Of a stretch of 6,146 bases of DNA, positions 1,724 to 6,146 are shown in pieces. Numbering within the stretch: position 1 is the first letter of the stretch; every line of letters starts with the position of its first letter. Under the pieces are notes generated by a model that did not search any database, had not been told where the DNA came from, and saw only the letters and a program-made list of their open reading frames with translations. Made by a program: the position numbers and the translations under genes. Source of the DNA: a virus (Duplodnaviria > Heunggongvirae > Uroviricota > Caudoviricetes); the IMG/VR virus record IMGVR_UViG_2617270975_000012, positions 1-6,146 of that record; one strand, written 5' to 3'.

Positions 1724-2074
1724 ATGGCAATATCTGCAGGTCGTCTGACACAGATGATAAGTGTTCTGAAGCCGGTGTTAACCCGTAATGCTGCCGGAGA
1801 AATGACGGAAGAATGGGTGTCATGCGGGAAAATTCATGCGGATATCCGTGGCAGGAGCAGCCGGGAGCGGATGCAGTCCGGTGCGGAAATGGCGCAGGCG
1901 GAAATCCGCATCTGGGTGCGCGGTCAGTCCGGCCGGGAAATCACGGCAGCGTCACGACTTCATGTGCTGAGTGGTCCATGGCGTGACCGGATCCTGAACG
2001 TTGTCGGGCTGCCCGTGCCGGATGCGACCGGCGGGCGTCTGGAAATTCTCTGTCGGCTGGGAGGGGAAAAATGA
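1724..2074 (+). CDS. Phage head-tail adaptor / head closure (stopper) protein, Phage_H_T_join-like, 116 aa
   Basis: N-terminal M..AGRL motif, central AQAEIRIWVR block and C-terminal LEILCR are typical of head-tail joining proteins. Size and position, directly upstream of an HK97-gp10-like gene, fit. GGAGG at 1718..1722 is only 1 nt from the ATG; in-frame stop at 1703..1705 prevents upstream extension. Confidence 0.72.
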   Translation: MAISAGRLTQMISVLKPVLTRNAAGEMTEEWVSCGKIHADIRGRSSRERMQSGAEMAQAEIRIWVRGQSGREITAASRLHVLSGPWRDRILNVVGLPVPDATGGRLEILCRLGGEK

Positions 2075-2517
2075 TCGAAACCCTGCTGGATTTTTCGGGG
2101 CTGGAGGACATCAGCCGCGATTTGCAGCTTCTGAGTGGTGCGGAAAATAACCGGGTGCTGCGTGAGGCAACCCGTGCGGGTGCGAATGTGCTGAAAGAAG
2201 AAGTGGTGTCACGGGCACCGGTACGCAGGGGAAAACTGCGCCGCAATGTGGTGGTCCTTTCCCGGCGCTCCCGCGATGGCGGGATGGAATCCGGTGTGCA
2301 TATCCGGGGTGTTAATCCGGACACCGGTAACAGCGATAACACCATGAAGGCGGATAACCCGCGCAATGCTTTCTACTGGCGGTTTGTGGAAATGGGGACC
2401 GTGAATATGCCACCGCACCCGTTTGTGCGCCCGGCATTTGATGTGCGCAGTGAACAGGCGGCACAGGTGGCGATTGCGCGGATGAACCGGGCCATTGATG
2501 AGGTACTGAGACGATGA
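2071..2517 (+). CDS. HK97 gp10-family phage tail component (tail completion / neck protein), 148 aa
   Basis: RAPVRRGKLRR and FVEMGT..MPP.PFVRPAFD motifs match the HK97-gp10 family signature. Start overlaps the upstream stop (ATGA at 2071..2074). Confidence 0.78.
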   Translation: MIETLLDFSGLEDISRDLQLLSGAENNRVLREATRAGANVLKEEVVSRAPVRRGKLRRNVVVLSRRSRDGGMESGVHIRGVNPDTGNSDNTMKADNPRNAFYWRFVEMGTVNMPPHPFVRPAFDVRSEQAAQVAIARMNRAIDEVLRR

Positions 2518-2858
2518 CGGAGGCGGATTTGTATCCTCATCTGGCGCATCTTGCCGGCGGGCAGGTGTACCCGTATGTGGTCCCCCTGCTGGATGGCAGG
2601 CCGTCGGTGGCGCTTCCGTGGGTGGTTTTCAGCCTGATTTCATCGGTGTCTGCGGACGTGATGGGCGGGCAGGCGGAGTCCTCAGTGTCGGTGCAGATCG
2701 ACGTTTATGCCGGGACTGTGACGCAGGCGCGTCAGATACGTCAGGACGCCCGTGAAGCCATAATGCTGCTGGCCCCGGGATCCGTCAGTGAAATGCAGGA
2801 CTATATTCCGGAAAACCGCTGTTACCGTGCAACCCTGGAGTTTCAGGTCACGGTGTGA
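2514..2858 (+). CDS. DUF3168-like phage tail terminator / tail completion protein, 114 aa
   Basis: LYPHL...VYPYVVP...PWVVFSLIS...VQIDVY...AREAI pattern resembles DUF3168 proteins found between gp10-like and major tail genes. ATGA overlap with the upstream gene at 2514..2517. Confidence 0.62.
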   Translation: MTEADLYPHLAHLAGGQVYPYVVPLLDGRPSVALPWVVFSLISSVSADVMGGQAESSVSVQIDVYAGTVTQARQIRQDAREAIMLLAPGSVSEMQDYIPENRCYRATLEFQVTV

Positions 2859-2876
2859 CTTTTTCTTTTTTTCTAC

Positions 2877-2908
2877 AAAACCCATACCCCGCCGCGTGCG
2901 GGTTTTTT
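2877..2908 (+). terminator. Putative intrinsic terminator/attenuator between the tail terminator and major tail protein genes
   Basis: A-tract 2877..2880, GC stem CCCGC (2888..2892) / GCGGG (2898..2902) with 5-nt loop, then TTTTTT at 2903..2908. Preceded by a weaker hairpin GTCAC-GGT-GTGAC (2847..2859) plus a T-rich run (2860..2873). Confidence 0.45.
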
Positions 2909-2914
2909 ATTATC

Positions 2915-2920
2915 AGGAGG
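2915..2920 (+). promoter_or_regulatory. Shine-Dalgarno (AGGAGG) of the major tail protein gene
   Basis: Perfect AGGAGG 4 nt upstream of the ATG at 2925. Confidence 0.6.
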
Positions 2921-2924
2921 CAGA

Positions 2925-3641
2925 ATGTCTGCTTTGTATGAACGCTCACAGCTGACGCAGGTGATGATTTCATCTGCCCCGGCGACTGCTGAAACTATGG
3001 ATAAGGCGGAATATCTGCGCCTGGACTGCACCATCAAGGAAGTCCAGTTCACCGCCGGTCAGAAACAGGATATTGATGTGACCACGCTCTGCTCCACAGA
3101 GCAGGAGAACATCAACGGTCTGGGGGCGTCGTCTGAGATTTCCATGTCGGGTAATTTTTATCTGAATCAGGCCCAGAACGCCCTGCGTGATGCCTATGAC
3201 AATGACGCGTTGTATGCGTTTAAGGTGCTGTTTCCGTCCGGTAAGGGCTTTAAGTTCCTGGCGGAAGTGCGTCAGCACACCTGGTCATCCGGTACCAACG
3301 GCGTGGTGGCAGCAACGTTTTCACTGCGTATGAAAGGCAAACCGGTGTCCTTTGTGGTACCGCTGGCGTTTGTGAAAAATCTGGATAAAACACTTACCGT
3401 GAATACAGGTGCGCTGCTGACAATGTCAGTCAGTGCCAACGGGGGAACGCCGCCGTATAAATACGCCTGGAAGAAGGATGGTCAGCCGGTTGACGGGCAG
3501 ACGACAGACACCTTCAGTAAGCCAGGTGCGCAGTCCGCTGATGCGGGGAAATATACCTGCGTGGTGACCGATTCGGCAGAGAAAGCACAGAGTGTGACGT
3601 CTGTTGAATGCACCGTGACAGTGAGCGCAGCCGCCGGATAA
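2925..3641 (+). CDS. Phage major tail (tube) protein with C-terminal Ig-like domain, 238 aa
   Basis: Position after the adaptor/gp10/terminator genes and before the chaperone pair; strong SD. C-terminal ~85 aa (nt ~3370..3638) has Ig-fold-like features (alternating beta pattern, W, Y.C in GKYTCVVTD), as commonly appended to siphovirus tail tube proteins. Confidence 0.72.
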   Translation: MSALYERSQLTQVMISSAPATAETMDKAEYLRLDCTIKEVQFTAGQKQDIDVTTLCSTEQENINGLGASSEISMSGNFYLNQAQNALRDAYDNDALYAFKVLFPSGKGFKFLAEVRQHTWSSGTNGVVAATFSLRMKGKPVSFVVPLAFVKNLDKTLTVNTGALLTMSVSANGGTPPYKYAWKKDGQPVDGQTTDTFSKPGAQSADAGKYTCVVTDSAEKAQSVTSVECTVTVSAAAG

Positions 3642-3655
3642 GGGGATGGGTCATC

Positions 3656-4030
3656 ATGAAAAAGGATCTGAAAACGCTGGCGCTGGCCAGACTGTCAGGG
3701 TTTCGTCATAAAACGGTGAAGGTGCCGGAATGGGGTAATGTCAGCGTGGTGCTGCGGGAGCCTTCGGCAGAGGCCTGGTATCTGTGGCAGGAAGTGCTCA
3801 ATGGTGATGGAGAGGATGACGATACCCTGTCGGTGGTGGCGAAAACCCGCCGTAACCTGGAAGCGGATGTGACGCTGTTCTGCGATGTCCTGTGTGATAC
3901 TGACCTGCAACGGGTGTTCACTCCGGACGACCGTGAGCAGGTGCTGGCCGTCTATGGTCCGGTACATGCCCGGTTGCTGCGTCAGGCACTGGAACTGATC
4001 GCTGATGCAGAGTCGGCCAGAAAAAAGTAG
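3656..4030 (+). CDS. Tail assembly chaperone (lambda gpG-like), 124 aa
   Basis: Start chosen at ATG 3656 (GGGGA at 3642..3646), not the ORF-track start 3608, which overlaps the major tail gene. Acidic small protein immediately after the major tail gene, ending in a slippery site followed by a -1-frame ORF, the hallmark G/GT arrangement. Confidence 0.7.
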   Translation: MKKDLKTLALARLSGFRHKTVKVPEWGNVSVVLREPSAEAWYLWQEVLNGDGEDDDTLSVVAKTRRNLEADVTLFCDVLCDTDLQRVFTPDDREQVLAVYGPVHARLLRQALELIADAESARKK

Positions 4031-4335
4031 CCCGCCCGGAAATTCGCTTTCTGATGCGACTTGCGCTCCGTCTGGGGCGCACCTTATCCGAACTGCGGCA
4101 CAGCCTGAGTGCGAGCGAGGCGATGATGTGGATGGAGTTTGACAGGGTGTCCCCGCTGGGTGATGAGCGCGGGGATATCCGTAATGCACAGATCGTGAAA
4201 GCGGTTTTCGGGGCACAGGGGATGAATGTTGCACTGAAGGACGCCATGCTCTGCTGGGGCGAGGATGAGGATAAGCCGGAGGTGGATCCGTTTGCGGCGC
4301 TGGAAGACGCGCTGAGCTTTGCAGCACAGTCATGA
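3656..4335 (+). CDS. Tail assembly chaperone G-T fusion via -1 frameshift (join 3656..4027, 4027..4335), about 226 aa
   Basis: The -1 frame after the slippery site is continuous with ORF-track 4054..4335 (MRLALRLGRTLSELRHSL..., gpT-like). Conserved G/GT frameshift arrangement of long-tailed phages. Confidence 0.62.
4021..4027 (+). other. Programmed -1 ribosomal frameshift slippery heptamer A_AAA_AAG
   Basis: Zero-frame codons AGA AAA AAG TAG at 4019..4030. The -1 frame from 4027 reads GTA GCC CGC CCG GAA ATT CGC TTT CTG ATG... with no stop through 4335. Confidence 0.65.
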
Positions 4336-4343
4336 ATGATGAG

Positions 4344-4364
4344 AACCGCTGAGGCGGTTTTTTT
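4344..4364 (+). terminator. Terminator-like hairpin downstream of the T segment
   Basis: Stem AACCGC (4344..4349) / GCGGTT (4354..4359), loop TGAG, T-run 4358..4364. Lies 9 bp after the G-T stop at 4333..4335. Confidence 0.4.
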
Positions 4365-4382
4365 ACGCCCGGAGAAAGGTGA

Positions 4383-4433
4383 ATGGCGACGTTACGTGAA
4401 CTGATTATCAAAATTTCGGCAAATTCACAGTAA
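4383..4433 (+). pseudogene. Truncated 5' end of a probable tail tape-measure gene (16 codons), interrupted by the IS66 terminus
   Basis: GGAGA at 4371..4375, ATG at 4383, MATLRELIIKISANSQ, then in-frame TAA at 4431..4433 supplied by the IS terminus starting at 4430. Identity as tape measure is inferred from position after G/GT only. Confidence 0.4.
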
Positions 4434-4456
4434 GCGACTCGTCAGAACCGTATTGA
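4430..4456 (-). repeat. IS66-family terminal inverted repeat (tnpC-proximal end) of the second copy
   Basis: Mirror of 1691..1717; GTAAGCG at 4430..4436. Confidence 0.6.
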
Positions 4457-4459
4457 TAT

Positions 4460-6031
4460 TTACTGAGAGCTCAGATCAACTTTCCAGGGCAACAGATCGC
4501 GTACCCGGTTTGCCGGCCAGTCCTGGATATGTTCAATGACGTAACGCAGCCACTTTTCTGGCTCCACATTGTTCAGACGGCATGTGCCGATCAGCGAGTA
4601 CAACACCGCCGCATGTTCACCACCGCTGTTGGAACCCGCGAACATCCAGTTTTTCCGGCCTACGGCCACTCCCCGTAAGGCGTTCTCTGCGATGTTGTTG
4701 TCGATTTCCACCCAGCCATTACTGCAGTACACGTTCAGTGCATCCCACTGTTTCAGCAGGTATGCGAACGCTTTTGCCGTATCTGAGTGACGCGACAGTG
4801 TTTTCATCTGTTGCTGTATCCAGTCATACAGTGACTGCATCAGTGGCGCGGCTCTGGCTTTTCTTGCCGCCAGACGCTGTTCTGCTGAACAGCCCCGGAC
4901 CTCTGCCTCGATGGCATACAGTTCACCGATACGCTGCAGGGCTTCCGTGGTGATGTAGGTGGGCGCTCTTGCATGCACATCGTGGATTTTTCTCCGGGCA
5001 TGAGCCATACACGCGGCTTCCGTTATTCTGCCGGATTCGTATAACGCCCGGTAACCACCGTAAGCATCGGCCTGAAGCACACCGCTGTAACCGGCCAGGT
5101 GATTTTGTGGATGGATACCTTTCCGGTCCGGACTGTACGCGAACCAGACCGCCGGGGGCATCTGTGAACCGGCGTTACGGTCATCACGGACGTAGACCCA
5201 CAGCCGGGCTGTCCGGGTTTTACCGCTGCCCGGCTCCTGGACCGGGACGGGGATATCATCAGCATGGACTTTACCGGGCATCAGCACATACTGGCGCAGG
5301 ACGTCATACAGCGGCTCCAGCAGTTCAGCAACAGCACCTGTCCAGCGCCCCAGTGTGGCACGGCTCAGCTCCACTCCCTGACGACGGTATATTTCTGACT
5401 GGCGGTATAACGGCAGATGGTCTGCATATTTCCCGGTGACAACATGGGCCAGAAGCCCCGCTCCGGCATAACTGCGTGCAATGGGTTTTGAAGGTACTGG
5501 TGCCTGCACGATATGGTCGCACCGGCAACAGGCCTGTTTCGGACGTTGTGTTTCGATAACCTTAAAGGCGCTGCTGATAAGCTCCAGTTGCTCTGACACA
5601 TCACATCCCAGAGAACTGAGTTCACCACCACAGGCAGGACAGCATTCCTCTTCCGGCCGGATAACCCGGGTTTCACGGGGAAGTGAGGCCGGTAACGGTT
5701 TACGGGCTGAAGACTGGCGCAGGGCGGATGGCAGTACCGGGTCATATTGCTCACCCAGCGTTTCCGCCATTTCTTCCTGAAGTGCGCTGATTCGCTCCTG
5801 TGCTTCCTGTATCTGCCGTTCGGTTTTTGCACGAAGTTTTTCTGAGCTTTTACCGAACTGCATACGTTGCAGTTTCGCAACCAGCGCCTTCAGCCGGTTG
5901 ATTTCGGAAGCATAAGCCGCCACCCGCTGTGAGAGCAGGCGGTTGTATTCAGCCATCTGGCGGATGGTGTCCTGTTGCGTCTGCAACAGTGCCCGCAGGC
6001 GGGCGTTCTCATGAGCAAGTGAGGTGTCCAT
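4460..6031 (-). CDS. tnpC: IS66-family transposase TnpC (orf3), 523 aa, second copy
   Basis: ORF translation is identical to 116..1687. Confidence 0.93.
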
Positions 6032-6050
6032 ATCCTCACTTTACAACGGG

Positions 6051-6146
6051 TTATATGCGGATTCCAGCGCGTTCCGTTCGTTTCGGGTGCTTCCAGTTGA
6101 TACCTTCAAGAAGCATGGATAACTGAGCCGGAGTAAGGTGCACCTT
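6051..6146 (-). CDS. tnpB: IS66-family TnpB (orf2), C-terminal fragment, second copy; 5' end outside window
   Basis: Mirror of 1..96. Confidence 0.55.
   Translation of the reverse strand, partial: KVHLTPAQLSMLLEGINWKHPKRTERAGIRI

Follow-up and report, generated by a model that had tools for sequence, protein, structure and literature searches.

The window, by which we mean the whole stretch of 6,146 nucleotides analyzed, contains a 2,712-nt phage segment (1718-4429, plus strand) with head-tail joining genes and a tail module, set between two inverted copies of an IS66-family insertion sequence. Its features are as follows, with the basis of each assignment in parentheses.

1-1717 and 4430-6146, opposite strands: 3′ parts of an IS66-family element, inverted copies (0 mismatches over 1,717 nt)
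1724-2074, plus strand: head closure protein (Pfam Phage_HCP)
2071-2517, plus strand: HK97-gp10-like protein (phage module gene)
2514-2858, plus strand: tail completion/terminator protein (Pfam Tail_completion_gp17)
2888-2920, plus strand: terminator-like hairpin (2888-2902) and T run, then a ribosome-binding site, AGGAGG, at 2915-2920 (terminator scan and sequence reading)
2925-3641, plus strand: major tail (tube) protein gene, 238 amino acids and stop (open reading frame, PHROG 158, RefSeq identity, homology to HK97 gp12 and BP-4795 ORF64)
2925-3344, plus strand: tail tube domain, residues 1-140, ending ...LRMKGKP (weak Pfam matches, Foldseek, invariant columns)
3345-3365, plus strand: inter-domain linker, residues 141-147, VSFVVPL (most length-variable stretch of the family alignment, where the 147-residue relatives diverge and stop)
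3366-3626, plus strand: immunoglobulin-superfamily (I-set/C2-like) domain, residues 148-234 (Pfam and AlphaFold2 model)
3627-3638, plus strand: C-terminal tail of four residues, AAAG (seen only in the closest relatives, P0003, P0004 and P0006; most of the family lacks it)
3656-4030, plus strand: tail assembly chaperone, G-like (Pfam Phage_TAC_1, E 1.1e-61, profile positions 1-124 of 124)
4054-4335, plus strand: T-like open reading frame (Pfam Phage_tail_T)
4383, plus strand: start of the tape measure gene, reading MATLRELIIKISANS (sequence reading)

The tail gene is one unbroken plus-strand reading frame (2925-3641) that runs from an ATG at 2925 to a TAA at 3639-3641. A first-pass annotation had described an Ig-like domain joined in frame to the C terminus of a major tail protein and had placed it at 3370-3638. 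The peptides that it quoted all lie inside the reading frame (LTVNTG from nt 3393, residue 157; GKYTCVVTD, residues 208-216; VECTVTV, residues 227-233). Its start coordinate needs correction: position 3370 is off frame by one base, the in-frame codons beginning at 3369 and 3372, and 3370-3638 translates with 7 stops. The gene follows the tail completion gene, precedes the G/GT chaperone pair and lies upstream of the tape measure gene, and both the order of the module and the genes flanking the tail gene are the same in HK97 and BP-4795. HK97 also has an annotated putative terminator at the position that matches the 2888-2902 hairpin. A second hairpin followed by a T run (AACCGC TGAG GCGGTT TTTTT) was noticed by eye at 4341-4366, between the T-like frame and the tape measure start, and was absent from the terminator scan; at the matching position HK97 carries terminator-flanked extra DNA (a moron).

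The identity of the carrier as a major tail protein, which the first-pass annotation had proposed, is borne out by a profile match, by the predicted structure and by homology. PHROG 158, "major tail protein," matches the product with an E value of 1.7e-116, and RefSeq has an identical protein under WP_001275441.1, "major tail subunit"; identity extends to a cluster of 3,419 sequences that bear the name [quoted passage not shown] The product is 68% identical over 234 residues to HK97 gp12 (NP_037706), annotated "major tail subunit," and 89% identical over 238 residues to ORF64 of the Stx phage BP-4795 (Q6H9U0). In DNA comparisons, 92 phage records match the gene at 90-99.9% identity, and almost all are E. 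coli Stx1/Stx2-converting phages. Pfam recognizes the tube domain weakly, through Phage_TTP_11 at 24.6 bits, under the 28.4 cut-off, and through a weak match to Phage_tail_2. By sequence, no solved structure was found for the tube family, the PDB matches being restricted to the Ig part. Foldseek with the full-length AlphaFold2 model, at a probability of 1.00 and E values of 1.5e-9 to 4e-5, recovered phage lambda gpV (7t4f, 8iyk, 7t2e, 8k36) and the YDC107 tail core (9mfe). The best hits were lambda gpV chains (7t4f, E 1.5e-9, 17% identity), which have the layout of tube plus Ig in common with the model. Confidence in the tube part of that model is moderate, with pLDDT of about 80-90 outside a loop at residues 46-68; by its position, this low-pLDDT stretch would be the counterpart of the long loop that lacks order in the monomers of tube proteins. 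Columns of the family alignment that are invariant within the tube domain extend up to K139. Taken with the model, these matches confirm the product as the major tail (tube) protein of an HK97-type tail module from a lambdoid siphovirus of the Stx-phage type.

The last ~85 residues, which had been described as Ig-like, form a domain of ~87 residues with an Ig fold, according to both Pfam searches and structure modeling. Membership in the Ig clan (I-set, PF07679; Ig_3, PF13927; Ig_2, PF13895) was judged by the curated Pfam gathering scores, which are exceeded by Ig_3 (E 3.9e-9, 37.3 bits against a cut-off of 30), Ig_2 (E 1.3e-8, 35.4 bits against 27), I-set (E 5.5e-8, 33.2 bits against 23.7, residues 149-227) and ig (E 1.2e-4, 22.8 bits against 21.8). 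Of the profile families that the first-pass annotation had named, the I-set and Ig families were thus matched and Big_2 (PF02368) was not: neither the whole protein nor the isolated domain gave a Pfam match to it at E<=1, and on this ground we rejected a Big_2, or lambda-type, assignment. Modeled alone, residues 145-238 give nine short strands that form an Ig sandwich, with a mean pLDDT of 96.7 and a pTM of 0.86, confidence dropping at the AAAG tail; in the model of the whole protein, pLDDT is 86-95 over residues 150-238. The domain is predicted to fold as a Greek-key beta-sandwich of two sheets, and it superposes on solved domains of I-set/C2 type. High-confidence structure prediction of the C-terminal residues therefore agrees with the profiles, and the two together confirm that the resemblance to Ig domains is not due to chance.

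The core signature of the superfamily (Trp in strand C, D-x-G-x-Y-x-C in strand F and a strand B Cys for the inter-sheet disulfide) is present in part. W182 and D206-A-G-K-Y-T-C212 (the motif D-x-G-x-Y-x-C) are present and nearly invariant across the family. The region of strand B (residues 165-172) contains no Cys, and the sole other Cys in the domain, C229, is in the last strand, the strand letters being those we infer for the strands of the model. Since there is no Cys in the strand B region, the canonical inter-sheet disulfide is impossible, which would fit folding in the bacterial cytoplasm. The closest PDB entries by sequence are 8zvi, a capsid decoration protein (E 3e-19), and 5lxk, the C-terminal domain of T5 pb10 (E 2e-17); tandem copies of the same module make up the phage tail proteins 9ncf and 9c2d, and the PHROG "Hoc-like head decoration" matches the module at 7e-37. 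[quoted passage not shown] This assignment corrects the natural assumption that the domain is a copy of the one on lambda gpV.

There is no stop or change of frame at the junction between the tube and Ig domains, and the chaperone gene (3656) begins 15 nt beyond the stop of the tail gene, so that the latter has no space to be extended by frameshifting. The direct fusion without frameshift that had been claimed earlier therefore stands, with a single continuous frame over 2925-3641. A hidden frameshift or a separately encoded Ig domain was considered and rejected, given that the frame is continuous and that in Ig-less relatives the chaperone gene directly follows the tail gene. Nor is the domain encoded in another frame and reached through a slippery site in the manner of SPP1 gp17.1*. 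The sole signal for programmed frameshifting in the module belongs to the chaperone pair, where the heptamer A AAA AAG at 4021-4027 lies just ahead of the G stop and the -1 frame from it is open into the T-like frame (..GQKKVARPEIRFLMRL..). From its sequence and position, this heptamer is the conserved G/GT programmed frameshift, downstream of the tail gene, and a G/GT frameshift is annotated at the equivalent place in HK97. An in-frame fusion is not unusual, since phage Ig-like domains are mostly encoded in frame (review, PMC9022992).

Frame changes within the Ig-coding part occur elsewhere in the family. Positions 3441-3445 of the window are a run of five G (AAC GGG GGA), and the P0008 variants (12 members) change frame exactly there, reading ...SANGERRRINTPGRR..., which is the frame of a 44-residue open reading frame at 3433-3567. 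These frame-shifted variants are probably sequencing errors or pseudogenes. Two Klebsiella relatives (P0094 and P0117) have a comparable change of frame in mid-domain, after ...WKK.

The architecture of tube plus Ig has well-described precedents. I-set Ig-like domains are recorded on the major tail proteins HK97 gp12, BP-4795 ORF64 and PY54 gp12 (Table 3 of PMC9022992, citing Fraser et al. 2006). HK97 gp12 and BP-4795 ORF64 have both the family and the two-domain in-frame architecture in common with the window protein, and the differences are merely allelic: the last ~44 Ig codons differ between the window gene and that of BP-4795, those of the window coming from a more divergent source, and HK97 gp12 lacks the four-residue AAAG. 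On these comparisons the architecture is already known, and the window protein is an allele of the HK97 gp12/BP-4795 ORF64 type. It thus carries little weight as a discovery, RefSeq already naming such proteins "major tail subunit" or "immunoglobulin domain-containing protein." Lambda gpV likewise joins an N-terminal tube domain in frame to a C-terminal Ig fold, but its Ig class is Big_2, as is that of T5 pb6, in contrast to the immunoglobulin superfamily here. The C-terminal domain of T5 pb10 (5lxk) is a homologous Ig module at 46% identity, and the strand C Trp and strand F DxGxYxC are common to the window domain, T5 pb10, 8zvi, 9d7z of phage Moo19 and the Hoc proteins of T4 and RB49. The carriers differ, T5 pb10 and the Hoc-type proteins being capsid decoration proteins whereas the window protein is a tail tube subunit. 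SPP1 gp17.1* provides another accessory C-terminal domain of Ig fold on a siphophage tube protein, one that is dispensable for infection; there it is an FN3 domain added by a +1 frameshift to about one subunit in four, whereas here it is an I-set domain encoded in frame on every subunit.

Relatives of the window protein indicate that the Ig domain is an optional cassette, since close homologs stop at residue 147 without it. These Ig-less proteins (P0099; P0100, with 767 member sequences; and P0110) are 147 residues long, have tube domains that are about 80% identical to that of the window, and end a few residues past the conserved ...LKGKP, at the domain boundary. In two phage backgrounds, with different protease genes, the chaperone gene begins about 8-9 nt past the 147-residue gene; with the chaperone gene so close, the Ig domain must be truly absent from these relatives and not encoded in another frame. 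Where the domain is present, it diverges faster than its carrier, with a mean pairwise identity of 52% versus 72% for the tube domain among 30 full-length relatives. It also moves between carriers: P0013 and P0017 have Ig domains that are 100% identical on tube domains that are 83% identical. Compared with BP-4795, dS stands at 0.09 for the tube domain and 0.14 for the first half of the Ig domain, and rises to about 3 (saturated) in the last 44 codons, a jump that implies a recombination breakpoint inside the Ig domain, near codon 190. In agreement with this breakpoint, the DNA match to a group of Stx phages ends at nt 656 of the gene. Linker and Ig domain together have a dN/dS ratio of about 0.2, compared with 0.18 in the tube domain; from the former value we conclude that the Ig domain is kept by purifying selection. 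At the level of sequence comparison, then, it is established that the domain is fused in frame, is dispensable within the family, evolves under purifying selection and is exchanged as a module. Phage Ig-like domains have been described as "promiscuous" in their distribution (PMC9022992 and other literature), and the family conforms to this description. A foreign composition of the Ig segment was considered and rejected, its GC content being 54.0% against 53.1% for the tube part.

Two further relatives of 237 residues (P0087 and P0090), with tube domains 71% identical, have a C-terminal domain (alignment columns ~165-258) that is about 30% identical and can be aligned from end to end. Its precomputed Pfam matches include no Ig family, and it lacks the strand F Cys and the DAG motif. 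From the alignment, we take it to be, in all probability, an Ig cassette that has diverged very far.

We think it likely that the role of the Ig domain is accessory adhesion, a role that would include adhesion to mucus as a special case. By analogy with lambda gpV, residues 1-140 would assemble into hexameric rings, stacked along the tape measure protein and enclosing it, and the Ig domain would hang from the seven-residue linker on the exterior of the tube, presumably projecting outward. With the fusion in frame, every subunit would bear an Ig domain, which would place six per ring along the whole tail. Many weak contacts with bacterial surface polysaccharide or with mucus glycans could then hold the virion near the cell and raise the efficiency of adsorption, and the building of the tube would proceed without the domain. 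Reviews describe the Ig-like domains of the lambda, T5, YSD1 and SPP1 tails as pointing outward and unneeded for tube formation, and present the weak binding of cell-surface carbohydrates by tail-tube Ig domains, as an aid to adsorption, as a proposal still to be verified; the carbohydrate adhesion mentioned in the first-pass annotation is this proposal. The literature examined yielded no measurements of binding or infection, either for this protein or for HK97 gp12.

The purifying selection on the Ig domain, comparable to that on the tube domain, would suit a domain that is mainly structural, whose outer contacts stabilize or stiffen the tail or help its assembly, with adhesion secondary or absent. 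Such a contribution is conceivable here because, in lambda, activity falls 100-fold when gpV is deprived of its Big_2 domain, and that domain takes part in a contact within the ring (review); lambda gpV is, moreover, the best full-length structural match to the window protein. We nevertheless consider a mainly structural role unlikely. Relatives with tube domains about 80% identical lack the Ig domain and have tail modules that are otherwise complete, which implies that the tube assembles without it, and the Ig class is other than that of lambda, with no match to Big_2. Capsid decoration proteins such as T5 pb10 carry the same domain, which in them points into solvent, and its faster divergence and its swapping between tube backgrounds would be unusual for a co-evolving structural interface. 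Together, the Ig-less alleles, the faster divergence, the swapping and a module common to solvent-exposed decoration proteins favor an accessory surface role over an essential structural one.

Accessory adhesion may also be considered with respect to where Stx-type phages encounter their hosts. An "adherence to mucus" model has been described for T4 Hoc, and by analogy the domain might act in the animal host, tethering these phages to glycans of gut mucus or epithelium and so increasing encounters with E. coli in the mucosa. We regard this as very unlikely to be a role in its own right, in that no tail tube Ig domain has direct evidence of mucus or epithelial tethering, the family is also found in prophages of the plant-associated Pectobacterium, Dickeya and Erwinia, where mucus is irrelevant, and the mucus reading is a special case of glycan adhesion and not a separate mechanism. 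The breakpoint near codon 190, the identical Ig domains on different tubes and the Ig-less alleles lead to a further suggestion, which seems to us quite improbable: that the Ig cassette on Stx-type phage tails is a swappable specificity module, recombination within and around it retuning which glycan (O-antigen, capsule or gut mucin) the tail binds along its length. If this were true, a swappable Ig domain would influence the sites at which Shiga-toxin phages persist and the E. coli strains that they reach. Returning to the hypothesis of accessory adhesion as such, the Ig-bearing, Ig-less and Ig-swapped alleles on near-identical tube domains form natural sets with which it can be tested.

The copy of the tail module in the window is disrupted by its flanks. 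The IS66 arms encode an ISCro1-like tnpC of 523 residues, with the terminal sequence ...GTCGCTTAC, and both arms end at the same position of the insertion sequence at the window ends. A repeat finder gave an arm length of 1728 nt, which we rejected in favor of direct comparison, by which the perfect repeat ends at 1717/4430. The left copy adjoins the ribosome-binding site of the head closure gene, and the right copy cuts the tape measure gene (4383-4429) after codon 15, where the intact gene of strain CFSAN027343 continues ...QSFQSELQ. Judging by this truncation, the copy of the tail module is defective and probably cannot make tails, and the tail gene of the window should not be read as part of a functional phage. 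Among the complete E. coli genomes searched, no record covered at least 80% of the window, and none contained the whole arrangement. The best "joined" genome matches, H26 and H29, were rejected, their IS66 being a different insertion, between the tail completion and tail genes. The arrangement may be a real prophage remnant bounded by insertion sequences or an artefact of a short-read contig.

The spacer between the tail completion and tail genes (window 2859-2924) is occupied in other E. coli genomes by a complete IS66 (tnpA-tnpB-tnpC), in either orientation (for example, L004 7148-9914 and L005 7142-9923). In strain ES5, the IS66 in this spacer gives the tail protein a different beginning (MSRLPQLTQ...). 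The spacer, with its terminator-like hairpin, may be a hotspot for insertion.
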